Part shown: piece by piece, positions 18,460 to 45,966 of the stretch | Numbering within the stretch: position 1 is the stretch's first letter | Layout: the number at the start of each line of letters is the position of its first letter | Assembly: GCA_001805575.1 (NCBI GenBank) | Contig: MHGN01000054.1 | Span: forward strand, 1-55,761 | Reading direction: 5' to 3' | DNA: 55,761 nt | Source: Omnitrophica WOR_2 bacterium RIFCSPHIGHO2_02_FULL_45_21 | Lineage (GTDB): Bacteria; Omnitrophota; Gorgyraeia; Gygaellales; UBA12090 | Made by a program: the position numbers and the translations under genes | The notes under the pieces: model-generated | What the model was told of the DNA's origin: nothing | Database searches by the model: none | What the model saw: only the letters and a program-made list of their open reading frames with translations

Positions 18460-20046
18460 TTATTGCGAATTTTTCCTGCTTCTTTTTTTCTTTGGCTCCA
18501 GGGTATTTAACCTGTCTTCCAGGGTAGCGATATAGGATGCGTCAAGCTCTCCCTCTTTGATGATGCGGGCAGTGATGAAAATAAGCAGGTCTATCTTTTC
18601 AATATCATCTGTCTGACGCTGGAAGAGAAAGCCAATAATGGGTATTTTACCTAAGAAAGGTATTCCTGTCCTTCCTCTGGTCTTAACATTTTTCAGCAGG
18701 CCGCCGATAACGATGGTCTCGCCGTCTTTAACTAAGATCTGGGTCTCGGTTTCTCTGGTATTTATTATAGGAAATTTGGAAAGCGTAGCCCCGCTTTCGC
18801 TCTTTACATCTAAGGTCTCGGTAAAAGAGGTAACTGCCGGATGAATAATCATATTGATATATTCAACATCGCAAATCTGAGGCACTACATTAAGCTGTAT
18901 CCCGATATCCTGATATTTACTCAGGGTTGAGCCGGTAATCTTTCCGCTTTCCGTAGAGACGTCCGTTTTTATCAACGGATACTTCTGCCCGACCAATATC
19001 GCTGCCTCTTGATTGTTGAGGGTTAAAATCCTCGGCGCTGATAAGGTATTCGCGGTTATGTCTTCTTCCAGGGCGTGTAAAATTGCCTCAAATTGGGCTC
19101 CGGTTAATCTTCTGAAGGCTACCTTTAATCCGGCGTTTGCCGTGGTTAACCCCTGGGACTTAGGTCCGAAGGCAGAGGGAGTAATGATGTCACTTAAGGA
19201 ATGCCCGGCAACCTGAGAGGTATCTATCCCGGCCCTTTTCCCGGCAGGAGTGAAAGTAAGCGCTCCGCTTGTGCTAGAGGCTCCGCTTGAGCCGGTTCCC
19301 CAGTCTAAGCCGATATCTCTCAGGCGGTCAATATTCGCTTCCATAATCCGGGTCTCAATCAAAACCTGCAGCGGTTTAACATCAATATCAACTATCATTT
19401 TTCGGAGCTTATCTAACACCGGAGGGATATCGGTAATAATCAATGTTTTAGAGCGGGAAATCCTTCCCTCGGTTATCCGCTGTCTTTTGCCAACGTCATC
19501 TCCTGCGCCAAACTCCCATCCTGCCTGTCCTGTGGATTCCAAAATAGTAATTTTCCCCCGGCCGGATATCTGCGGCTCAATAGCCTTACGGGCATCAGCG
19601 GCATCTATGTACTTCAGAGAAAAAACCTCAGTGATCGTTGGCTGAACCTGAGTAAGCTCCACTTCTAACTTCTTTTGATTAGTGAGTTTTTCAATAGGGG
19701 CAACGGTAACGATATTTTCTCTCTGCTCATAGCCATAGCCGTAGATGCTTACTATAGTTCTTAAGGCATCTAACCATGGGACATCGCTTAGCCTGATAGT
19801 TACCGTACCTGCCACTTCGGGGCTGGCGACAATATTTACCCCTGACTTATAGGCGATCACCTTTAAGACATTGCGGATATCCGCATCTTTGAAATCCAGG
19901 GTTATCTTCTGGTCGGAAATACCGCTATCAGCGCCTGAGCTTTCTTCTGCCGCCGCAGGCGATACAGCGAGCTCTTCTGGCTGGGAATACCCATTGACGT
20001 AAAAACCAGAGAGAAGAAAAATCCCGACTAAGACTTTCAACCTCAT
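18460..20046 (-). CDS. pilQ: type IV pilus secretin
   Basis: A signal peptide, secretin N-domains (ITLDFKDADIRNVLKVIA) and the C-terminal secretin core (GIPFLGKIPIIGFLF..LLIFITARII), in pilMNOP synteny. Confidence 0.85.
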   Translation of the reverse strand: MRLKVLVGIFLLSGFYVNGYSQPEELAVSPAAAEESSGADSGISDQKITLDFKDADIRNVLKVIAYKSGVNIVASPEVAGTVTIRLSDVPWLDALRTIVSIYGYGYEQRENIVTVAPIEKLTNQKKLEVELTQVQPTITEVFSLKYIDAADARKAIEPQISGRGKITILESTGQAGWEFGAGDDVGKRQRITEGRISRSKTLIITDIPPVLDKLRKMIVDIDVKPLQVLIETRIMEANIDRLRDIGLDWGTGSSGASSTSGALTFTPAGKRAGIDTSQVAGHSLSDIITPSAFGPKSQGLTTANAGLKVAFRRLTGAQFEAILHALEEDITANTLSAPRILTLNNQEAAILVGQKYPLIKTDVSTESGKITGSTLSKYQDIGIQLNVVPQICDVEYINMIIHPAVTSFTETLDVKSESGATLSKFPIINTRETETQILVKDGETIVIGGLLKNVKTRGRTGIPFLGKIPIIGFLFQRQTDDIEKIDLLIFITARIIKEGELDASYIATLEDRLNTLEPKKKRSRKNSQ

Positions 20047-20049
20047 TTA

Positions 20050-20478
20050 TCAGTCCTCCCTTAATTTAATCTCAAACACCAGGCCTGCTTTTTGCACAAT
20101 CACTTTATTGGGGTCAATGCGTATTATTTGATAATCGCCAATCATATCCCCGGCGCGAAATACCTCCCCATCCATAACGCAATAGGATATGCCTTTGGCA
20201 TCATACATCAGCCCCTCTAATTGCGGAGGGCCTTCTGCCCTTTCTTTAGGCGCAGGTGGCTCTATAATTCTTCCGTCAGGGGTTACCAATGCAATGAAAG
20301 GGTCTCTTTTCCCTTTCGCCTCATAAACCCAACCCTTGTCCGCAAGGGCCGGGTTTATGGAGCCGCCGGCAGAAGCCGGCTGCTTTGGGCCGGCTTCTGC
20401 CTGGCTACGCGTATTTAGCGATAGGAACATTATAGCAAAAACTATGGGTAAATAAAAGTATTTATTGTTTGCTGGCAT
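20050..20478 (-). CDS. PilP-like pilus assembly protein
   Basis: Its position between pilO and pilQ, an N-terminal signal or anchor, and a small beta-rich C-terminal domain (RDPF motif). Confidence 0.45.
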   Translation of the reverse strand: MPANNKYFYLPIVFAIMFLSLNTRSQAEAGPKQPASAGGSINPALADKGWVYEAKGKRDPFIALVTPDGRIIEPPAPKERAEGPPQLEGLMYDAKGISYCVMDGEVFRAGDMIGDYQIIRIDPNKVIVQKAGLVFEIKLRED

Positions 20479-21034
20479 ATATTTTAAGGGTTAGCTCAAC
20501 TTTATGCTTAGTGAATCCTTCGCTATCCGGATTAATCTTCAGCTGGCTAACTGAAATCAGGGGGTTATTTTCCAGTGCGGATAGAAACATGCCTAACTGA
20601 TGGTAACCGGAAGTTAACTCTAATTTAAGCGCAATCGGTAGGAGGCGCAAACCAGCGCTGTTCAGCGCCTCCTTTTCCCGCTCAGCCGATAGCATCTCCG
20701 GACGCATCTGCATAACCTTAAGGCCGCAGGCAGAGGCTTTTTTTGAGATGCCATCTAAAAGCGTGGTTATCTCCGATTCAGAGAAAATTTTGTTTTCTGA
20801 GTCCGCGTATTTGGCCTTCAGATTATCTAAATTAATTTGCAGGGCGCGGATTTCGCTGGCGCCTTTTTTGTATTGCTTTAGGCTCATCCTGACTTGGCCC
20901 AACTCAGAAGAAAGCTTGTGCAGATTGCGGGTTTGCGGTTTAAGAATATAGGTAAAGTCAATATATAAAGCCGTAACTGTTCCCAGCGCAATCAAAATAA
21001 TTTTCTTTTGCTTTTCGCTAATCGTTTTTGCCAT
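20462..21034 (-). CDS. pilO: type IV pilus assembly protein PilO
   Basis: A single N-terminal TM helix, a coiled coil and a ferredoxin-like C-terminus, in the expected operon position. Confidence 0.65.
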   Translation of the reverse strand: MAKTISEKQKKIILIALGTVTALYIDFTYILKPQTRNLHKLSSELGQVRMSLKQYKKGASEIRALQINLDNLKAKYADSENKIFSESEITTLLDGISKKASACGLKVMQMRPEMLSAEREKEALNSAGLRLLPIALKLELTSGYHQLGMFLSALENNPLISVSQLKINPDSEGFTKHKVELTLKIYASKQ

Positions 21035-21659
21035 CGGTAGATTTGGAAGGCGCGGGATTTATTTTTTTTCCTCCGCCAGAAGTTTTGCCTTTAGTTTTTG
21101 AACCGAGGATAAAGTCGGCCAGCTCAGTGGTGCCCAATTTCCTCCTCTCTACCGATACCAGCTCTAAACTTGCAAAATCCTTGTCAAGGCGCGCATCGGA
21201 CTTTAAGGCCTGTAAAAACTTTCCAATCTGGGCCATCTCGCCCTCCGTGCCGAAGATACAGCTGCCTTTTATTTCCCAGGCACTCTTTGATACGGAGAGT
21301 CCGGATAGCCAAATGCCCTGCGGCAGATAATCGCTGATAATGTTTAATTGCGGGGCAATCCCTGAACGCTGGCCTCTCATCCGCTTAAATAGCTCATCCA
21401 GGTTCCCGAAGCCCTTAAGCTGGTTTCTAATTTCATCCAGTTTTTCTTTTTGGGGCTGAATATCCAGAAAAGCTTTCTTGGCCCGCCCCAAGCTGAGCTT
21501 TTGACTAAATGTAACTACGGGAATAAGCAGGTGAATGAAAACGAATCCGGCAATGGCCGGGCCTAAAATTTTTCTTAAGCTATCAACCGACAGCTTAGGC
21601 CGAAATGCCCGGCGCTTTTTGCGTAATTCTTCGGGTAAAAGATTTATCTCTAAAATCAT
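21018..21659 (-). CDS. pilN: type IV pilus assembly protein PilN
   Basis: An INLLPEE N-terminus followed by a TM helix, in the expected operon position. Confidence 0.7.
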   Translation of the reverse strand: MILEINLLPEELRKKRRAFRPKLSVDSLRKILGPAIAGFVFIHLLIPVVTFSQKLSLGRAKKAFLDIQPQKEKLDEIRNQLKGFGNLDELFKRMRGQRSGIAPQLNIISDYLPQGIWLSGLSVSKSAWEIKGSCIFGTEGEMAQIGKFLQALKSDARLDKDFASLELVSVERRKLGTTELADFILGSKTKGKTSGGGKKINPAPSKSTDGKND

Positions 21660-22609
21660 CTTAATACCAGTCCCAGGGCAATGACAAATGTATTCCTTTT
21701 AGCCTTTAGCTCTTCTGTATTTATACCGGGGCCGTATTTTAGGGGAGAGAAAAAATCGTAACGCGCGACTGAAATTCCCAGCTGGTGGTTTAGAAATTTT
21801 ACTATCTCTAAAGCCTCAGCCGCTCCCCCGCTCAAATACATTTTTTCCAGCCGTTTACCGCTTTGATTCTCAAAATAATCAATGGAAGAGCTGATTTCAC
21901 CGGATAAATTTATCAGGGAAGGCTCACTGCCGCCAAAGGCGATATCGCGGCTGAATCTTAAAGTGCCGCCATCAAGAATTACCATATTAGTAAAATTGGC
22001 TCCGATATTAAGCAACCCGATGACTTCGCTTTTGGCTGTTTTCGCTTCAGACGCCCATTGGTAACTATGGTTAAAGACATTAGACAGGCAGAAACAGTCA
22101 ATATCAATCACCTTGGCGGTAAGCCCTGCCTTTTCCAGCAAGCTTATCCGCTCCTGGATAACTGTTTTTTTCACCGCGGCCAACACCACTAACATCTTAT
22201 TGTCTTCAGCATTATCTCTAACGATCGCGCAATCAAAAACCACCTCATCCAATGGCAATGGGATATACTGGCCGGCTTCAAACTGCATAGTACTCTTCAA
22301 CTCATGCAGGTTCATGCGAGGCAGATTAAGGTAGCGCATAATTACGGATTGCCCTGATATTGAGGTATTCACGGAGCGGCCGGAAATCTTCTGCGCTGCA
22401 GCAAATTCCTTTAAGGCGCCAGGTAAGTCAACGCCCGGAGTAAGCGCGGAAAAGGATAACTGCTTGAGCAGACGCTCCTTGCCTTTTACTTCCAGCTCAA
22501 GCAGTTTGATGCTTGAGGAGCCGATATCTAAGGCGATATTTGAGCGTTGTTGAGGAATAAAAATGGAAGATATTGCAAAAATTTTCCTGAAATTGTTATT
22601 TATGAACAT
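21656..22609 (-). CDS. pilM: type IV pilus assembly ATPase-fold protein PilM
   Basis: Actin-like fold with ALDIGSSSIKLLE, in the expected operon position. Confidence 0.8.
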   Translation of the reverse strand: MFINNNFRKIFAISSIFIPQQRSNIALDIGSSSIKLLELEVKGKERLLKQLSFSALTPGVDLPGALKEFAAAQKISGRSVNTSISGQSVIMRYLNLPRMNLHELKSTMQFEAGQYIPLPLDEVVFDCAIVRDNAEDNKMLVVLAAVKKTVIQERISLLEKAGLTAKVIDIDCFCLSNVFNHSYQWASEAKTAKSEVIGLLNIGANFTNMVILDGGTLRFSRDIAFGGSEPSLINLSGEISSSIDYFENQSGKRLEKMYLSGGAAEALEIVKFLNHQLGISVARYDFFSPLKYGPGINTEELKAKRNTFVIALGLVLR

Positions 22610-22641
22610 CTATCCGCTTATAAGCCGTCAGGGCTGCCGCC

Positions 22642-23685
22642 TCAAGGCGTGAGTTGATAAGAATTTTGAGTATCTTTCCAGGAACTAATCTGCACATCAG
22701 CGGTAAGATTAAGGCTCCCTAACGCGCTCATATACGTATTATTATAAGCGACGTGGGCATTGCCGTTTAAACGAGCCTCTTCTCCGGCCCAAACTCCGCC
22801 ATTGATATTAAGATTTCCTCCGCCGCCGTTTATCCTGAACTCGCCCCGGGTGTAGATTGCTCCGTCAATCTGACCTCGGCCATTGACATCAGCATCATAG
22901 GTTGCCCCGAGATTATTAATCACATCTCCGGCCACCACGAAAAATCCTCCGATGGTGCCGATATTGCCATTAAGCTGTAAATCTCCTTCAATATAAACAA
23001 TATTCGGCGTGCCGGTGGCGGGGTCATCGGGGTCAGTGGGCGGCGAATACCAAAAAGAGCCGGGGAAGCCCTGCTCTCCTGTTGCTTCATTTACTAAGTT
23101 ATTTCCGCTGATAACATAGACATTCTGCTGGCCGCTGCTTAAGGCGCGTAGCTGCTGAAAATCAAATCTGGCTAAAGGATTAATTGAGTTATCCTGGGTA
23201 ATCGTGCCGTTTACATTGCCGGTATTGTCAATCTCATCCGCGTAACGGATGTCTCCGGTTATGCTATAACTATTTCCATTAAGGTCAACCTCGCCTGCAG
23301 AATATATAGCGTTATCATAGAAGTTTGGCGGAATGCTTTTTGACATCGTGGCTTCGATGCTGCGCGAGGCCCGCTGCGCTCCGCTAAAAGGAAAATAGCC
23401 GGTAGAATTGACAATACGGTCTCCTCCGCTGGAAGAGATAGTTGCCTCGTATCCGCCTGAACCCAACTGCGTGGCGCTAATTGAGCTTGAATTGTAGTCA
23501 TTGCGCAGCTCATAGAGCGCCCGGTTTATCCCGGCTTCGGATAACCAGAAGGCCTGGGCGGTTTCCGAATATCTCCTGGCAATGTTATTTTCCGAAATAC
23601 TGCGCGAAATTATTGCCGAGCCTAAAATTGTCAGCAGAAGAATTACGGCAAAGGTGATAATTAAGGCCATGCCTTTTTTATTCAT
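22642..23685 (-). CDS. PilX-like minor pilin / pilus tip-associated protein
   Basis: The hydrophobic N-terminal helix MALIITFAVILLLTILGSAII and the ARRYSETAQAFWLSEAGI PilX_N-like motif, followed by a Gly/Asn-rich beta-helix-like C-terminus. Confidence 0.55.
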   Translation of the reverse strand: MNKKGMALIITFAVILLLTILGSAIISRSISENNIARRYSETAQAFWLSEAGINRALYELRNDYNSSSISATQLGSGGYEATISSSGGDRIVNSTGYFPFSGAQRASRSIEATMSKSIPPNFYDNAIYSAGEVDLNGNSYSITGDIRYADEIDNTGNVNGTITQDNSINPLARFDFQQLRALSSGQQNVYVISGNNLVNEATGEQGFPGSFWYSPPTDPDDPATGTPNIVYIEGDLQLNGNIGTIGGFFVVAGDVINNLGATYDADVNGRGQIDGAIYTRGEFRINGGGGNLNINGGVWAGEEARLNGNAHVAYNNTYMSALGSLNLTADVQISSWKDTQNSYQLTP

Positions 23686-24211
23686 TTCTCAACCTCGCTT
23701 GCTCGGTTAAGGCGCCGGCTGCGGGAAAGAGCAATTCCCGCTGTTTTACGGTTTTAGCGGCCCTTAACTGAACCTGGGCCAGATATGATTGAGAGCAGAG
23801 CCCGGAGCAATCCCTCTCGGTGGTGCAGGAACCGTCACCATGCACCCAGCAAAAAGTTAAACTGCTTATATCATTGGCTAAAACCTTATTTGTACCGTCG
23901 GGATGCTCGCGGATGATCTGGTTATTGCTTAAGGAATAGGTAATAGCATCGCTGTAATCAGGAATATAGAATTGGATAGTTGTGCCGTCTGCGGCCATGC
24001 TTACCTCTCTTGAGCGGTCGGCCCGGCGTATTTCCCGGCTCATCCCGTCCATTGCCTGGCGGGCGGCCTGCTGGAGGTCTAAAAGCCCCATATCCGAATG
24101 CCAGGCCATATCGGCAAACTGCAGAACCCCAAGAATGCCTAAAACAACTAAGCTCAGAATAGCCGCGCTGATTAAAATCTCAATAAGGGTAAACCCCTGT
24201 CCTCTTTTCAT
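23678..24211 (-). CDS. minor pilin with a prepilin-type N-terminal methylation domain (PilW-like)
   Basis: The GQGFTLIEILISAAIL class III signal. Confidence 0.65.
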   Translation of the reverse strand: MKRGQGFTLIEILISAAILSLVVLGILGVLQFADMAWHSDMGLLDLQQAARQAMDGMSREIRRADRSREVSMAADGTTIQFYIPDYSDAITYSLSNNQIIREHPDGTNKVLANDISSLTFCWVHGDGSCTTERDCSGLCSQSYLAQVQLRAAKTVKQRELLFPAAGALTEQARLRNE

Positions 24212-24633
24212 GGCTCGGTAATCAGTGTGCGCAAAACCAAGCTGCGCTGCCTAATCCCGAAATCCCTCCAGGAAACGGTTAGGCTGATATCCAAACGGTC
24301 CTCGCCGACGTCAACCCAGTCAGCGCTGGTCTCGATGGCCTCGCTGTTTAAAGCGGCAAGGCCGTTAGAATTTATGGCCGCGCTATCCCAATCCCAGTAG
24401 GTATCTGCGTCAATTACGCCGGTTTTAAAATTGGCAAAATTCGTATTCTTTATTTCCTCTAATATATATTGTCCTTGCACAGTGGCAATCGAGAGATTCC
24501 GGTTTGCTTCGTTTAAGAAAATACAGGTAATAAATAAATGTAAGAGCCCCGCCAGCACAAAAGCCATAATTCCTGATGCCACAAGTAATTCAGATAAAGT
24601 AAAGCCCTGTTTTGATAGAAAGCCCTGCTGCAT
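24208..24633 (-). CDS. minor pilin with a prepilin-type N-terminal methylation domain (PilV-like)
   Basis: The KQGFTLSELLVASGIMAFVL class III signal. Confidence 0.65.
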   Translation of the reverse strand: MQQGFLSKQGFTLSELLVASGIMAFVLAGLLHLFITCIFLNEANRNLSIATVQGQYILEEIKNTNFANFKTGVIDADTYWDWDSAAINSNGLAALNSEAIETSADWVDVGEDRLDISLTVSWRDFGIRQRSLVLRTLITEP

Positions 24634-24653: not shown

Positions 24654-24684
24654 AAAAACCCCCGCACCTTTAAAGATGCGGGGG
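24654..24684 (-). terminator. rho-independent terminator after the major pilin gene
   Basis: On the minus strand CCCCCGCA-10 nt-TGCGGGGG is followed by TTTTTAAT. Confidence 0.8.
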
Positions 24685-24715
24685 TATAACAACAATCATA
24701 TTCTTGCTATTACTG

Positions 24716-25123
24716 CTAACAAGCAGCCTGGCTCATTACTGCTCCGGTAACTACCGTGAAATCCCTGGTACCGGTTGTGCCGCAATCTGCCGGAACAGCT
24801 GTACAGGAATAAGCTGTCGCCGACAAGGTACCGCACTCAAAGTCATAACCGGCCGGGTCTGTAGTAGTATAATCCTCATTTAGATATGCTGGGGTGGCGC
24901 CGGTTAAGTCGGTCATAGCCGTGGGGTAATTTCCGTTATTGGCTGAAGCAAAAGATTCACAGCCAGTGGCGATTGTTTTTAAAGTCGCCTGCGCATTCGC
25001 CTCGTTAGCATTTACTCTTGCGCGTAGAAGGTTAGGTATAGCTATAGCAGCCAGTAATGCAATAATTGCAACCACGATCATAATTTCCACTAAGGTGAAA
25101 CCTTTTTTGTTTTTAATACGCAT
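24716..25123 (-). CDS. pilA: major type IV pilin
   Basis: MRIKNKKGFTLVEIMIVVAIIALLAAIAIPNL class III signal, with AAAGGAGG seven nt upstream. The upstream extension to 25186 in the track covers promoter-like sequence. Confidence 0.85.
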   Translation of the reverse strand: MRIKNKKGFTLVEIMIVVAIIALLAAIAIPNLLRARVNANEANAQATLKTIATGCESFASANNGNYPTAMTDLTGATPAYLNEDYTTTDPAGYDFECGTLSATAYSCTAVPADCGTTGTRDFTVVTGAVMSQAAC

Positions 25124-25157
25124 TTTTTCCTCCTTTATGCTTTTTAGGCATATGTAT

Positions 25158-25186
25158 ATAGTAACGGTTAACTTTTGCTTTGTCAA
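25158..25186 (-). promoter_or_regulatory. sigma70-like hexamers TTGACA-17-TACTAT between the leader terminator and pilA
   Basis: Hexamers read on the minus strand. They may be a second promoter or a chance match. Confidence 0.3.
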
Positions 25187-25187
25187 G

Positions 25188-25216
25188 AAAAAAAACCTAA
25201 GGCGCAGACCTTAGGT
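25188..25216 (-). terminator. intrinsic terminator and likely expression platform of the pilA leader
   Basis: On the minus strand ACCTAAGG-TCTGCG-CCTTAGGT is followed by T8. Confidence 0.8.
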
Positions 25217-25245
25217 TGGAAATGAGGATTACTCCTCTACCCTTT

Positions 25246-25322
25246 GGCAGCCTGGCGGTCCTCTTCTAGAGGATCCATAGCTTTGCGCCCCCTGATTACT
25301 CAAGGTTTACCTTTATCAGTGG
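25246..25322 (-). ncRNA. candidate c-di-GMP-I (GEMM-I) riboswitch aptamer
   Basis: The minus-strand RNA reads AAAGGUAAA-CCUUGA-GUAA-UCAGGG-GGCGCAAAGC-UAUGG...CCGCCAGG-CUGCC. This parallels the V. cholerae Vc2 layout as I recall it: GGCAAA-CCAUUC-GAAA-GAGUGG-GACGCAAAGC. It has a 6-bp stem capped by a GNRA loop, the CGCAAAGC core, a UAUGG receptor-like strand, and GGUA/UGCC closing pairs. Confidence 0.55.
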
Positions 25323-25342
25323 TTCTTTCTACTCTTAGAGAA

Positions 25343-25370
25343 AGTATACCACAAAAATAGAAAATTTCAA
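25343..25370 (-). promoter_or_regulatory. sigma70-type promoter TTGAAA-16-TGgTATACT driving the leader and pilA
   Basis: The -35 hexamer is at 25365-25370, the extended -10 at 25343-25351, and the predicted TSS near 25336. Confidence 0.5.
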
Positions 25371-25372
25371 GC

Positions 25373-25411
25373 CGCTGATAGAAAGCGCTGATAGAAAGCG
25401 CTGATAGAAAA
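25373..25411. repeat. three tandem 13-bp repeats (cgctgatagaaag) abutting the -35 element
   Basis: The copies at 25373-25385 and 25386-25398 are identical. The copy at 25399-25411 has one mismatch. Confidence 0.95.
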
Positions 25412-25416
25412 GAGAG

Positions 25417-26229
25417 CTAATCAGGAATGTGTTTATCAGCGAAATAATCAGCCACCTTCGCAAAATCAGACAATGCTAATTCTTCGGCTCTTATTTTCTG
25501 TTTTAAAGCGATTGCTTTAAGACAATCGGCGATTTTAACTTGAGGGAATAATCTGGCTAAGCTATTTTTTAAGAGCTTGCGGCGCTGATTAAATGCTAAA
25601 CGGATAAGCTTAAAGAAGAACGTTTCGTTCTTTACCTTGACTTTTGGTTTAGGCAGCATTTTTAACTCTACAAAACAAGAATCAACCTTCGGCCTTGGCC
25701 AAAAAGAACTACCTTTAATTGAAAAAAGTATTTTCGGATGAGTGTAAAACTGCGCAAAACAACTAAGGGCTCCGTAACTTTTATTTCCCGGGCCAGCCGT
25801 CAAACGCAGCGCCAATTCCTTTTGCAAAGTAAGATAGATAACCTCTATAGATTGATTATAATCTAAGAGGTAAGCGATAATCGGCGTAGAGATATAGTAA
25901 GGAATATTCGCTATTACCCTAATCCTCCCCGAACCTTGGCAACCTATGAGGTTAACAAGGTTAGTTTTAAGGATGTCTTTGTTGACTAACTCAAAATTAC
26001 TAGATAGCGAAAATTTAGAGGTTAATAATTCACAAAGCTCTTTATCAACCTCAACAGCAATCACCCTTTTAGCTACTTTAAGTAAATGCTGGGTTAGCTC
26101 TCCCCTGCCTGAGCCGATTTCTAAAATTATATCGGTTTTTTTGAGCTTACAGGCCTGGACTATTTTCTCCTGGATGTTCTTATCGGTAAGGAAATTCTGC
26201 CCTAAGCTCTTTTTAGGTTTTTGGTGCAT
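25417..26229 (-). CDS. rsmA: 16S rRNA (adenine1518/1519-N6)-dimethyltransferase
   Basis: LGQNFL, the SAM site EIGSGRGELT, and NIPYYISTPI. Confidence 0.9.
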   Translation of the reverse strand: MHQKPKKSLGQNFLTDKNIQEKIVQACKLKKTDIILEIGSGRGELTQHLLKVAKRVIAVEVDKELCELLTSKFSLSSNFELVNKDILKTNLVNLIGCQGSGRIRVIANIPYYISTPIIAYLLDYNQSIEVIYLTLQKELALRLTAGPGNKSYGALSCFAQFYTHPKILFSIKGSSFWPRPKVDSCFVELKMLPKPKVKVKNETFFFKLIRLAFNQRRKLLKNSLARLFPQVKIADCLKAIALKQKIRAEELALSDFAKVADYFADKHIPD

Positions 26230-27161
26230 AAGACGGCGGCCTGGATAGCCCGTATCATAGAGGCGGGGTCAGCCTGATTTTTTCCGGCAATATCAAAGGC
26301 GGTCCCGTGCCCGGGGGAGGTGCGCACAAAAGGCAGGCCCAGGGTAATATTCACTACTTCCTGAAATCCGCTTAATTTAAGAGGAATAAGCCCCTGGTCA
26401 TGATACATACAGACTATACAATCATAATTTCCGGCTTTTGCTTTCTGAAAGATAGTATCTGCAGGATATGGCCCTTTAACCTTAATCCCTAATCTCTCTG
26501 CCATTGCCATTGCCGGAATTATCAATTTTCTTTCTTCGCTGCCCATAACACCGCTATCCGAAGCATGCGGATTCAAGCCGCAGATAGAAAGTTTTGGCTT
26601 CTTAATGCCAAAGAGTGATTTTAGCCCTAAGGCGGTTGTAGAAATAACCTTGGATATTTTTTCTGCGCTTAGCCCTTTGGCAACGTCTTTTAAGGGTATA
26701 TGTCTAGTGACCAAAACCACTCTTAATTTCTTATTAAACAGCATCATCACTGCATCTCTGACCTGGAATGTCCGGGCGATATATTCGGTCTGTCCGCTAA
26801 AATGATACCCTAATAGGCTTACCGCCTTCTTATTTAGCGGAGCAGTAACCAAACAATCTATCTTATGGGATTTAATCAATTCCAGCCCTTTCTGCAGATA
26901 TTCCATCGCCGCCTTACCATATTCTGGCCTAACTTTTCCAAATCTAAATCCTTTTTGAGGCACATTCCGTAGGTCAATAACCACAAAATCATGATACTTT
27001 GACACTTTGACACTTTGACACTTCTCAAACACCCGCCTATCCCCAATTACGGTAAAATCTGCTGACTTAGAAAGTCCGGGGGTTCCCAGCGCCTTAAGAA
27101 TAACTTCGGCCCCAATCCCCGAAGGATCCCCCATAGTTATTGCACATCTAACCTTAGTCAT
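26202..27161 (-). CDS. pdxA: 4-hydroxythreonine-4-phosphate dehydrogenase
   Basis: ITMGDPSGIG, GLNPHA, MYHDQGLIPLK and TSPGHGTAFDIAG motifs. Confidence 0.9.
   Translation of the reverse strand: MTKVRCAITMGDPSGIGAEVILKALGTPGLSKSADFTVIGDRRVFEKCQSVKVSKYHDFVVIDLRNVPQKGFRFGKVRPEYGKAAMEYLQKGLELIKSHKIDCLVTAPLNKKAVSLLGYHFSGQTEYIARTFQVRDAVMMLFNKKLRVVLVTRHIPLKDVAKGLSAEKISKVISTTALGLKSLFGIKKPKLSICGLNPHASDSGVMGSEERKLIIPAMAMAERLGIKVKGPYPADTIFQKAKAGNYDCIVCMYHDQGLIPLKLSGFQEVVNITLGLPFVRTSPGHGTAFDIAGKNQADPASMIRAIQAAVLCTKNLKRA
26996..27023 (-). repeat. tandem octamer array (GTCAAAGT) x about 3.5 inside the pdxA CDS
   Basis: The plus strand reads actttgac three times and then actt. It is translated as KCQSVKVSKY. 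Confidence 0.95.
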
Positions 27162-27174
27162 AGAGCCGATGCCA

Positions 27175-28137
27175 TTACTTAACCACGATATACGCCTTTG
27201 ACTTCAACTCTTCAATCCATTCGCTTAATTTTACGGTTAATTTCTCTTCAAAAATATAATTGTAAATGCGTTCGGAAACGCCAGCTAAATCCTTAAGTTC
27301 TTGCGGATGTATTTCTAATAACTTAAAGACGCATATACCTTTGTCCAATCTTACGGCGGCGGATACTTCATCAAGCTTAAGCGAAAAAATCGCTTCCCGG
27401 ATTTCAGGTTTTAATTGGCTCTTGGACAGCGCATCTTTAGCGTAAGCAAGCTTGTAGCGCTCTGCCAGCTGTTTAAAATCGGCGCCTGTTTTTAAATCCT
27501 CGGCCAGTTTTTCTCTAATATTTTCATCTTCGAAGTAGAGCGACTCTATGCTGCGCATTTCCGGCTGCAAGAAATCATCTTTATGTTTTTCATAATATAC
27601 AGTTACCTCATCGGGGCTGATGACAATTTTAGACCTTACCTCCTGTTCAATCAGCCCCCGGAGCATCATTTGTTCACCCATTCTCTTTTCTAAATCACTT
27701 AGAGTTAACCCTCTCAATTTTAAGGACGCTTGAAATTCTTCATCTGAGCCGTAGCTTCTCCTGGCCTCTTCCAGCCGCTTTTTCACCATATCCGCCCTGG
27801 CCTGAAGTTTTTTACGTTTTGCCTCCTGTAAGATAATCCGTTCCTCAATCATCTTACCCATCAGCTCTTGTTTCTCATGCTCAATCTTTTCCTCTAATTC
27901 CTTTCCCTGATAGCGCTGGCTTAACTGCATAATAATCAGATTGAGAAAGGCATCGGCTTCGGACTGAGTAATGCTCTCCTTATTCACAATAGCCACAATC
28001 CTGTCTGCCGGCGCAGCCGTTTCTCCAGAGCTGTAAGCACAAGGCAAAAAGAAGATTAAGGTCAAGAAAATCGCCTTTGGCGATAACTTTAAGAAAATAG
28101 GTAAACTAATCAGCCTAATTATTTTAGCCATAATCAC
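27175..28137 (-). CDS. SurA-like periplasmic chaperone / parvulin-type PPIase
   Basis: A signal peptide, a SurA_N-like helical region (RIVAIVNKESITQSE), a degenerate parvulin C-terminus, and surA-pdxA-rsmA synteny as in E. coli. Confidence 0.6.
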   Translation of the reverse strand: MIMAKIIRLISLPIFLKLSPKAIFLTLIFFLPCAYSSGETAAPADRIVAIVNKESITQSEADAFLNLIIMQLSQRYQGKELEEKIEHEKQELMGKMIEERIILQEAKRKKLQARADMVKKRLEEARRSYGSDEEFQASLKLRGLTLSDLEKRMGEQMMLRGLIEQEVRSKIVISPDEVTVYYEKHKDDFLQPEMRSIESLYFEDENIREKLAEDLKTGADFKQLAERYKLAYAKDALSKSQLKPEIREAIFSLKLDEVSAAVRLDKGICVFKLLEIHPQELKDLAGVSERIYNYIFEEKLTVKLSEWIEELKSKAYIVVK

Positions 28138-44758: not shown

Positions 44759-44787
44759 TTGACTTTCAATAAAATATGTGTTACATT
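44759..44787 (+). promoter_or_regulatory. promoter TTGACT-17-TACATT for the GGDEF gene
   Basis: The -10 element ends 9 nt before the ATG at 44797 and no SD is visible, so the mRNA may be near-leaderless. Confidence 0.4.
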
Positions 44788-44796
44788 TTAATCATT

Positions 44797-45966
44797 ATGG
44801 AAAACGATACTCTTAATCATACCCACGAAGAGCTCCAGCGGGCACGCAATGAATTAGCTCTCCTTTATGAAATTTCAAATGCCATGCATACAACCTTAAA
44901 GCCGGATGAAATCCTCTACATTATCCTTACCGCGGTAACCGCTCATGTGGGATTAGGATTTAACCGGGCCATACTTTTTCTGGTGAATGAAAAAGAGGGT
45001 ATCCTGGAAGGTAAAATGGGCATCGGTCCGGACAGCGGCGAAGAGGCAAACCGTATCTGGACCTACGTTGAGCAGGAAAAAATGAATTTAGAGGACCTGA
45101 TCAGCAATTACAAGGTATCAGGCCAGCTTTCCGGCAGCCAGCTTAATCGCCTGGTTAAAGACATCCGCCTGCCGCTTGCGGAAGAAAAAGGCGGTATTCT
45201 GACTATGACCTTACTTGACGGTATGCCGCTGCATATCAACCCTCAGGCAATGGCTGCCCAAAAGCACGATGCCCTGATTAATATTCTTAAGTCCGAGGAG
45301 TTTATCAGCGTCCCTTTAAAAGCAAAGGATAAAATTATCGGGGTCCTTCTTGCTGATAACCCCTATACCCACAAACCAATCACCAATGATGATATCCGCG
45401 TGCTGACCATGTTTGCCAACCAGGCCGGGCTGGCCATTGAGAACTCACAGTTATACGAGAAGACCCTGCTCAAAAGCCACAGCGACTCGCTCACCGGCCT
45501 CTGGAACCACGGCTACTTCCAATACCGGCTGCAGGAAGAAATAAATATTGCTAAAGAAGCCCAGCATCCGCTTTGCGTCATCATGGCGGACTTAGATAAT
45601 TTCAAAACCTATAACGACATGCTTGGGCATCGGGAGGGAGACCAGCTCCTAGTTCAAATTGCCAAGCTCTTAACCCTCTCGGCAAGAAAACAGGATTCCA
45701 TCTATCGCTACGGGGGCGAAGAGTTTGCCATATTATTGATGCAGACAACTAAATCTGAGGCATATATTATTGCCGAAAGGATACGGCTGACAGTTGAAAA
45801 ATATAATTTTCCTCATGACCAAACCATTGCCAATAAAAAACTTACCGTAAGCTTGGGGGTTGCCGTTTTTCCCGGCGATGCCGAGAGCAAAGAATTATTA
45901 CTGGAGCATGCCGATAAGGCGCTCTATGCTGCCAAACACCAGGGAAAGAATCGCATCTGCGGTTAG
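44797..45966 (+). CDS. GAF-domain diguanylate cyclase (GGDEF)
   Basis: A GAF-like N-terminal domain, then HSDSLTGLWNH, the active site RYGGEEF, and an RxxD I-site (RKQD) five residues upstream. The start may be 44776 or 44797. Confidence 0.85.
   Translation: MENDTLNHTHEELQRARNELALLYEISNAMHTTLKPDEILYIILTAVTAHVGLGFNRAILFLVNEKEGILEGKMGIGPDSGEEANRIWTYVEQEKMNLEDLISNYKVSGQLSGSQLNRLVKDIRLPLAEEKGGILTMTLLDGMPLHINPQAMAAQKHDALINILKSEEFISVPLKAKDKIIGVLLADNPYTHKPITNDDIRVLTMFANQAGLAIENSQLYEKTLLKSHSDSLTGLWNHGYFQYRLQEEINIAKEAQHPLCVIMADLDNFKTYNDMLGHREGDQLLVQIAKLLTLSARKQDSIYRYGGEEFAILLMQTTKSEAYIIAERIRLTVEKYNFPHDQTIANKKLTVSLGVAVFPGDAESKELLLEHADKALYAAKHQGKNRICG

Follow-up and report, generated by a model that had tools for sequence, protein, structure and literature searches.

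GEMM RNAs were named for their association with motility and membrane genes, and their targets, as listed in 2007, include pilM, pilO, pilQ, pulF and pilus genes of Geobacter (PMC1950547). In Cd1, a class I riboswitch for cyclic di-GMP (c-di-GMP) from Clostridioides difficile, experiments have established that the aptamer is compatible with the terminator and that the 3' strand of helix P1 and a switching strand form an antiterminator of only transient stability (PMC9262584). In C. difficile, every class I switch that functions is an OFF terminator; reviews warn that the direction of a switch cannot be extrapolated between species (PMC6366702). We identified a class I c-di-GMP riboswitch aptamer (GEMM-I) between rsmA and the prepilin gene pilA of Omnitrophica WOR_2 bacterium RIFCSPHIGHO2_02_FULL_45_21, on contig MHGN01000054.1 of assembly GCA_001805575.1 (positions 1 to 55,761; this whole 55.8-kb stretch is referred to as the window). 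The element occupies a 5' regulatory position, with a promoter, a terminator and the co-oriented pilA-pilQ cluster downstream, and pilus genes are a listed GEMM association (PMC1950547).

The whole window was scanned against Rfam 15 at gathering thresholds, with only the score of the best clan member reported. The sole match was to RF03167 (c-di-GMP-I-GGC), whose cutoff of 59 bits it passes with 61.2 (E 4.7e-12). It is full-length, spanning model positions 1-80 of 80 over 79 nt of the minus strand (25320..25242). A second, lower-scoring match from the same clan (CL00126) also exceeds its own cutoff, and is most likely RF01051, the canonical c-di-GMP-I (GEMM-I) family, since the gathering score of that family is only 35 bits. 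RF01786 (c-di-GMP-II) had no match in the window at the gathering threshold, nor at E<=10 in 25100..25450. Further weak Rfam matches in the region (E 0.4-10) fall far under their cutoffs and were set aside as chance. An earlier note, made from the letters of this stretch, had proposed a c-di-GMP-I aptamer here, and that reading is supported both by the clan model above its gathering score and by covariation in 32 relatives. Its suggested Rfam comparison came out as anticipated for the clan and for the empty RF01786 control; the best model is RF03167, not RF01051. The features of the aptamer are as follows.

25323..25239, minus strand: c-di-GMP-I (GEMM-I) aptamer including the distal part of helix P1 (ACC/GGU), from the RF03167 match and covariation in 32 relatives
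Upstream of the first hairpin, minus strand: GGUAAA of the aptamer 5' part, read from the sequence
25311, minus strand: G, equivalent of Vc2 G20, model position 10 (covariance-model alignment)
25305..25290, minus strand: first hairpin, CCUUGA-GUAA-UCAGGG, with a GYRA-type GNRA tetraloop (sequence and covariance-model alignment)
25289..25280, minus strand: junction strand GGCGCAAAGC (sequence)
25287 and 25256, minus strand: C and G, equivalents of the interhelical Watson-Crick pair, in columns invariant among the 32 aligned relatives
25284, minus strand: A, equivalent of Vc2 A47, model position 37, first A of the AAA linker (covariance-model alignment)
25284..25282, minus strand: AAA linker between the hairpins
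25282..25249, minus strand: second hairpin, with base pair A25282-U25249 and distal stem UCCUC-UAGAA-GAGGA (covariance-model alignment)
25247, minus strand: C, equivalent of Vc2 C92, model position 75 (covariance-model alignment)

The binding pocket can be read by comparison with Vc2, in whose crystal-structure numbering G20, A47 and C92 contact the ligand (PMC4744006, PMC5888326). G20 touches one guanine of the ligand (PMC4744006, PMC5888326) and C92 is the Watson-Crick partner of the second (PMC5888326). The interhelical C-G pair is universally conserved in GEMM-I (PMC4744006), and the AAA linker is 'virtually always' there (PMC1950547). Given that all three contact nucleotides, the interhelical pair and the linker have their equivalents in the window, the ligand is most likely c-di-GMP. 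The key pocket change of cyclic GMP-AMP (cGAMP)-type aptamers (GEMM-Ib) has been described (PMC9481103, PMC7266159); a c-AMP-GMP riboswitch of this type needs A at the position-20 equivalent and was rejected as a candidate, the window having G25311. Where the RF03167 consensus reads GACGCGAAgCc and that of RF01051 GACGCAAAgCc, the window has GGCGCAAAGC, with the canonical A at 25284. Judged by its nucleotides, this RNA is thus a canonical GEMM-I aptamer of class I and not the GGC variant.

The fold departs in two places from the one first drawn. Covariance-model alignment gives a closing helix P1 composed of UG (25318-25317) with CA (25246-25245) and of CC (25322-25321) with GG. The earlier note had closed CUGCC against GGUA; instead, U25249 closes the second hairpin with A25282, and G25248 and C25247 are unpaired pocket nucleotides. 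It had also taken UAUGG for a receptor-like strand. However, the second hairpin contains no 11-nt tetraloop receptor, that is, no CCUAAG/UAUGG. Such a receptor accompanies GAAA loops, and aptamers with GYRA loops are of the receptor-less type (PMC1950547). Our relatives show the same division: the receptor strand CCUAA is found in 1 of 39 GYRA-loop aptamers versus 22 of 43 with a GAAA loop.

Leaders of pilA that carry the riboswitch are too few for a covariation analysis, and we therefore used aptamers fetched by a DNA pattern. The resulting alignment (A1) holds 32 related aptamers, with a structure derived from Rfam; the pattern fixed part of the 5' half, and those columns carry no information. 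In this alignment 84% of cells are paired versus 68% in shuffles. The covariation score is 0.489 versus 0.196 in shuffles, a value that none of 500 shuffles reaches, and controls with slid partners give 0.09-0.19. Every cell of the first hairpin is paired (100%), and four of its six pairs have changed on both sides; the second is paired in 87% of cells, with such changes at nine pairs. Only 57% of the closing helix is paired in a fixed register, because its length, internal loop and register vary.

Changes of the same kind are seen in contig L011, whose pilA is 85% identical and which keeps the rsmA-riboswitch-pilA order. A U.G pair of the first hairpin has become C-G, and the distal part of the second hairpin is a longer, unrelated and perfectly paired stem, CCACACCCAG-CAAA-CUGGGUGUGG, in place of UCCUC-UAGAA-GAGGA. 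The flanks of the two loci have diverged, although there is almost no difference in promoter, core, middle hairpin or terminator. Of the covariation that the earlier note had suggested looking for among homologous pilA leaders, the strong signal in 32 aptamers and the compensatory replacement in L011 bear out the idea, but the other homologous pilA leaders that were fetched lack the element.

Following rsmA on the minus strand, the order is rsmA stop, a 13-nt tandem repeat, promoter P1, a leader of ~16 nt, aptamer, hairpin, terminator, a second promoter-like site (P2) and pilA. The components outside the aptamer are listed below.

25370..25343, minus strand: promoter P1, sigma-70-like, with TTGAAA, a 16-nt spacer and the extended -10 element TGgTATACT; 10/12 consensus matches, TG present
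25248..25208, minus strand: proposed antiterminator, GCC (25248-25246) with GGU (25210-25208) and AGG (25243-25241) with CCU (25215-25213), predicted by folding
25237..25224, minus strand: middle hairpin GAGGA-GUAA-UCCUC, 14 nt, identical in L011
25217..25188, minus strand: intrinsic terminator, AACCUAAGGU-CUGC-GCCUUAGGUU followed by U8; stem 25217..25194, 10 pairs, 4 of them G-C
25186..25158, minus strand: promoter-like site P2, with TTGACA, a 17-nt spacer and TACTAT; 10/12 matches; between the terminator and pilA
25134..25129, minus strand: Shine-Dalgarno sequence AGGAGG of pilA
25123..24716, minus strand: pilA, a 135-aa prepilin with an N-terminal methylation motif (PF07963, E 1.8e-9)

The elements that the earlier note had placed in 25370-25188 are all there, on the minus strand: the promoter with its extended -10 element, the GGUAAA, the CCUUGA/UCAGGG stem with its GUAA loop, the junction strand, the GAGGA-GUAA-UCCUC hairpin and the terminator, in which we count ten pairs. 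Promoter P1 is almost identical in L011 and would start transcription near 25336. The terminator has a 4-nt loop and a run of eight U (25195..25188), the last of which lies 65 nt before the ATG of pilA (25123). It is identical in L011, and it forms in every minimum free energy (MFE) fold of the full leader that is constrained to keep the aptamer. Its stem begins 24 nt past the last nucleotide of the aptamer, and neither arm lies within the aptamer; the ligand therefore cannot melt the terminator directly and can only remove a competitor.

The candidate competitor pairs the 3' strand of helix P1, including the C92 equivalent, with the 5' arm of the terminator, and leaves the middle hairpin inside the enclosed loop. 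In L011 the 3' segment has this antiterminator as its MFE structure; in the window it is 0.3 kcal/mol less stable than the MFE. Over the full leader, the fold with the terminator (-49.9 kcal/mol) and that with the antiterminator (-49.2 kcal/mol) are near-equal. Relatives of the platform have a homologous arrangement, GCCAAAGGG-spacer-AACC(C)UAAAG-loop-CUUUAGGGUU-U6, and analogous antiterminator pairings are found in L098, L081, L112, L133, L028 and L051. The middle hairpin is absent from other relatives of the platform.

Two further pairings were considered and rejected as the switching structure. One joins the pocket strand GGCGCA (25289-25284) to UGCGCC (25206-25201). MFE folds contain this helix for transcript lengths of 136-140, as does the unconstrained MFE fold at full length, and UGCGCC occurs in the terminator 5' arm of L081 and L123. 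However, complementarity to the junction is not enriched near relatives: downstream of 91 related aptamers, 6-mers complementary to this junction occur at 18 loci versus 12.4 +/- 3.4 in shuffles. The GGCGCA/UGCGCC helix, which would use the loop and 3' arm of the terminator, is a possible nested extension of the main antiterminator. The other is a strand swap between the middle hairpin (GAGGA..UCCUC) and the distal second hairpin (UCCUC..GAGGA), prompted by their mirrored strands; L011 has the middle hairpin together with an unrelated distal stem.

We lean towards a cis-acting OFF switch, in which c-di-GMP promotes termination at about 25188 and low c-di-GMP permits read-through into the pilus operon. 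Promoter P1, the receptor-less GYRA-loop aptamer, the small hairpin and the intrinsic terminator would act as a self-contained unit. The nascent RNA would bind c-di-GMP in the pocket formed by G25311, A25284 and C25247, and binding would lock the UG/CA and CC/GG pairs of helix P1. The locked helix would withdraw its 3' strand (GCC..AGG, 25248-25241) from the terminator 5' arm (CCU..GGU, 25215-25208), so that the terminator forms and transcripts from P1 stop near 25188. When c-di-GMP is low, the transient antiterminator would let RNA polymerase continue into pilA and on through the pilM-pilQ cluster, adding to any output of P2. The placement of a promoter-aptamer-terminator cassette ahead of a pilA that already owned a promoter would be the simplest history of the locus. 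The riboswitch would thereby place a c-di-GMP-dependent stream of transcripts on top of a basal stream from P2. The analysis shows what the aptamer is, how it folds and which nucleotides line its pocket, as well as the terminator and the neighbouring genes; binding of the ligand, the direction of switching, the use of P1 and P2 and any effect on pilus production are inferred. We infer the OFF direction from the ability of the helix P1 3' strand to pair with the terminator 5' arm, as in Cd1. Control of pilA by the riboswitch is likely on the basis of position, with P2 intervening.

Several observations weigh against this OFF switch. The conserved P2 between the terminator and pilA means that pilA may not depend on read-through. 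The antiterminator is short, with 3+3 pairs and an internal loop. Lengthening the transcript by the 5' arm and loop of the terminator changes its energy by -8.3 kcal/mol, and 209 of 1000 shuffles and 311 of 1000 permutations that preserve the hairpins gain at least as much; the sequence itself thus gives no statistical support for a switching structure. The platform is represented by two near-identical copies, which provide no covariation for the antiterminator, and an RF01051 score for the window is absent from a scan that gives the best clan member only. Among the pilA orthologues, fetched from genomes and from a protein collection, the riboswitch is absent in 8 other contigs at 67-84% identity, which indicates that the link between riboswitch and pilin is recent and narrow. 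It is absent in four genome loci (L001-L004) and in three closer metagenomic loci (L012-L014), and L011 is the sole fetched contig with a pilA relative that carries it.

Alternatively, the terminator may be constitutive or nearly so, with P1 yielding a discrete c-di-GMP-binding RNA of ~150 nt and pilA transcribed from its own P2. Such an RNA could be a terminated by-product, a trans-acting small RNA (sRNA) or a ligand sponge. We regard this as possible but doubtful. It would account for a strong terminator that stands outside the aptamer, and for the finding that the antiterminator does no better than chance in shuffles. P2 starts one base past the U tract, and it is kept in L011 (TTGACA-16-TAGAAT) at equal distance to pilA despite an insertion of ~85 nt that separates it from the terminator. 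Its -35 box, CTTGACAA, is common to the riboswitch-less pilA promoters of L001, L003, L004 and L012. Related aptamer-terminator modules lie 150-350 nt upstream of unrelated genes, sometimes with a second terminator following, and the class I switch Bc1 binds its ligand without regulating (PMC11218506). On the other hand, the unit is co-oriented with pilA and immediately upstream of it, a position kept in L011, and the terminator and antiterminator folds are near-equal in energy. The validated OFF switch Cd1 also has a merely transiently stable antiterminator (PMC9262584). Promoter-like hexamers such as those of P2 are themselves weak evidence, as 6 were found in the region versus 2.5 expected.

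The riboswitch-less orthologues in L001 (3900-3990) and L004 (3840-3990) have pilA leaders of ~200 nt with a shared promoter, CTTGACAA-N14-TGATATAAA, and a shared segment starting AAAAAGGCAAGGC. These leaders may hold another conserved element; they have no Rfam match at the gathering threshold.

A bolder version of the stand-alone RNA, which we consider rather unlikely, is that the unit is a mobile, autonomous cassette of Omnitrophota that came to lie before pilA recently and yields a discrete c-di-GMP-binding sRNA, whose role would be in trans or that of a ligand buffer, instead of or besides gating pilA in cis, while pilA keeps its ancestral P2. Related platform modules elsewhere precede a response regulator, a conserved unannotated protein of ~100 aa and other genes.

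An ON switch, in which ligand binding would block termination and so raise expression of the pilus genes, on the pattern of C. difficile pilA1 or Geobacter pilM, is improbable. The known pilus-associated cyclic-dinucleotide riboswitches, Cdi-2-4 at pilA1 and that of Geobacter pilM, are ON switches (PMC6366702, PMC9262584), and many GEMM-I terminators overlap the second hairpin and follow ON logic (PMC1950547), an overlap also present in the aptamer relative L053. In the window, however, neither terminator arm lies within the aptamer, and the only alternative pairings found, of helix P1 or pocket strands with terminator sequence, all follow OFF logic. Nor is the middle hairpin complementary to the terminator in a way that would serve a three-state relay. 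The analogy that the earlier note had drawn with pilA1 of C. difficile therefore holds for a c-di-GMP leader with a terminator before a pilin gene, but the ON direction probably does not transfer to an architecture of OFF type.

That the RNA is a true c-di-GMP-I-GGC variant sensing a ligand other than c-di-GMP is very improbable: RF03167 is the top model and exceeds its gathering score (61.2 vs 59), but A25284 stands where RF03167 has G and RF01051 has A, relatives of the subtype that carry this A still match RF03167 best in 15 of 20 loci, so that the label tracks the scaffold, and the G20 equivalent is G, so that a cGAMP-type change is absent too. The name 'GGC' we take to denote the nucleotides at positions 20, 47 and 92, in line with the consensus of the two models. 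A set of more than 120 metagenomic aptamers with the core GGUAAACC...GGGRCGCRAAGC was fetched (L015-L134), and A occupies the diagnostic position in all 122 matches of this subtype. Twenty of these loci, all with the canonical A, were scanned with Rfam. RF03167 was best in 15 (59.6-74.5 bits), in which the second hairpin is short and the loop is GYRA or another that takes no receptor. RF01051 was the best model for L066 and L092 (77 bits each) and L133 (64 bits), which combine a GAAA loop with the CCUAAG/UAUGG receptor, and likewise for the GUAA-loop loci L051, L078 and L131 (56-66 bits), and thus the loop type alone does not fix which model wins. We conclude that a best match to RF03167 mostly reflects the receptor-less scaffold and not a change in the pocket. 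This is a pitfall for annotation, as the GGC model out-scores the canonical one on ordinary receptor-less c-di-GMP-I aptamers with the canonical A. An automatic 'GGC variant' label should not be read as altered specificity before this one diagnostic nucleotide is checked.

The genes that follow related aptamers in the metagenomic contigs are diverse. A conserved protein of ~100 aa with the motif HRVxTxLDRxExDFLDKLxKDxLFSTG is encoded at L028:10110-10412, L112:1573-1899 and L081:2034-2360, and also in L131, L123 and L133. It is the first gene 3' of closely related GEMM-I aptamer-terminator modules on at least six metagenomic contigs, often with a second terminator-like hairpin intervening. The protein has no significant Pfam family and may belong, as a so far uncharacterised component, to the c-di-GMP regulon of this lineage. 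The gene behind a related aptamer at L125:612-1733 (minus strand) encodes 373 aa, with an N-terminal methylation motif of prepilin type and a Hint/pretoxin-HINT domain (PF07591, E 5e-22), an unusual pilin-like architecture. Aptamers of the same subtype as that of the window lie upstream of a Flp/Fap pilin (L040:260-439, minus strand; PF04964, E 2e-8) and of a CheY-like receiver protein (L051 and L078); these neighbours fit the usual gene associations of GEMM.

The gene context of the window agrees with the earlier note, which had put rsmA upstream, pilA downstream, a further terminator behind pilA and a diguanylate cyclase about 20 kb away.

26229..25417, minus strand: rsmA/KsgA-type ribosomal RNA adenine dimethylase, upstream neighbour (PF00398, E 4.5e-65)
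24685..24658, minus strand: terminator-like hairpin 3' of pilA; 12 pairs, 8 of them G-C, tail TTTTTAAT
18460..24633, minus strand: remaining pilus cluster (PF07963, PF11104, PF04350, PF00263)
44776..45966, plus strand: GAF-GGDEF diguanylate cyclase candidate with a GGEEF motif (PF00990, E 2.4e-49; PF01590, E 2e-9)

After pilA, the cluster contains three more prepilin-like genes, a 347-aa protein, PilM, a 213-aa protein, PilO, a 142-aa protein and a PilQ-type secretin. A homology search with PilA recovered prepilin homologues in thousands, mostly from Omnitrophota, and the locus is also present in several metagenome assemblies of the ENA. The GAF-GGDEF gene lies ~19.5 kb from the riboswitch, and the presence of this candidate in the window makes c-di-GMP synthesis by the organism probable.

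Directly upstream of the riboswitch, the order surA-pdxA-rsmA(ksgA) (28137..25417, minus strand) is the same as in E. coli. We found no terminator between rsmA and promoter P1; transcripts reading through from surA-pdxA-rsmA would therefore also reach the riboswitch terminator. Between the rsmA stop and P1 lies a perfect 13-nt tandem repeat, CGCTGATAGAAAG (plus-strand letters), in 2.9 copies (25373..25410). L008, from the same species and a different sample, has exactly one copy less, and L011 has none. The repeat thus varies in copy number just upstream of the -35 box of P1.

Omnitrophota are uncultivated, and their surface appendages are thought to be relevant to attachment. To our knowledge, no c-di-GMP-I riboswitch has previously been examined in this phylum. 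The locus provides a sequence-level link between c-di-GMP signalling and the expression of type IV pili in Omnitrophota, and its RNA of ~150 nt is open to in vitro testing without culturing the organism. GEMM-I ahead of pilus genes has been known since 2007-2008, and its presence here is no surprise to a specialist.

Among described systems, Cd1 (Cdi-1-3, flgB operon of C. difficile) has a GEMM-I aptamer followed by a separate intrinsic terminator compatible with the folded aptamer, as in the window. The antiterminator of Cd1, like the one proposed for the window, is built from the 3' strand of helix P1 and the 5' strand of the terminator, and its stability is only transient (PMC9262584). The operon under Cd1 control is long and serves a surface appendage for motility (PMC9262584, PMC6366702). 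The window RNA differs from Cd1 in coming from another phylum and in preceding a pilus rather than a flagellar operon. Its platform is much shorter, with a small hairpin within the antiterminator loop and a promoter-like site past the terminator, and its OFF behaviour is a prediction. Detailed studies exist of the pilM switch of Geobacter, which has the GEMM-I scaffold, and of the class II switch at C. difficile pilA1 (PMC9262584, PMC6366702). The GEMM-Ib RNA of Geobacter metallireducens pilM shares the GEMM-I scaffold directly upstream of type IV pilus genes and control by transcription termination (PMC9262584, PMC1950547). It differs in that the pilM RNA senses 3'3'-cGAMP, has a terminator that overlaps the aptamer and is an ON switch, whereas the window RNA has G at the position-20 equivalent and a separate terminator.

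Cdi-2-4, the class II switch of C. difficile pilA1, is similar as a c-di-GMP leader with a terminator before a major pilin gene, and shows partial read-through into the downstream pilus genes (PMC6366702). However, its aptamer fold is unrelated and it is an ON switch; RF01786 has no match in the region of the window RNA at E<=10. With Vc2, from the leader of a tfoX-like gene of Vibrio cholerae, the window RNA shares the three-helix architecture, the GNRA loop, the AAA linker, the interhelical C-G pair and the contacts G20, A47 and C92. The two differ in that Vc2 is of type 1, its GAAA loop being matched by a receptor, and does not work through a terminator, whereas the window RNA is of type 2, with a GUAA loop and no receptor, and is followed by a terminator. 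The RF03167 family, the best-scoring model, resembles it in the short receptor-less second hairpin and differs in the G of its consensus where the window has A. Overall, the RNA upstream of pilA is an ordinary new instance of a well-known kind of RNA switch and not a new type of element.

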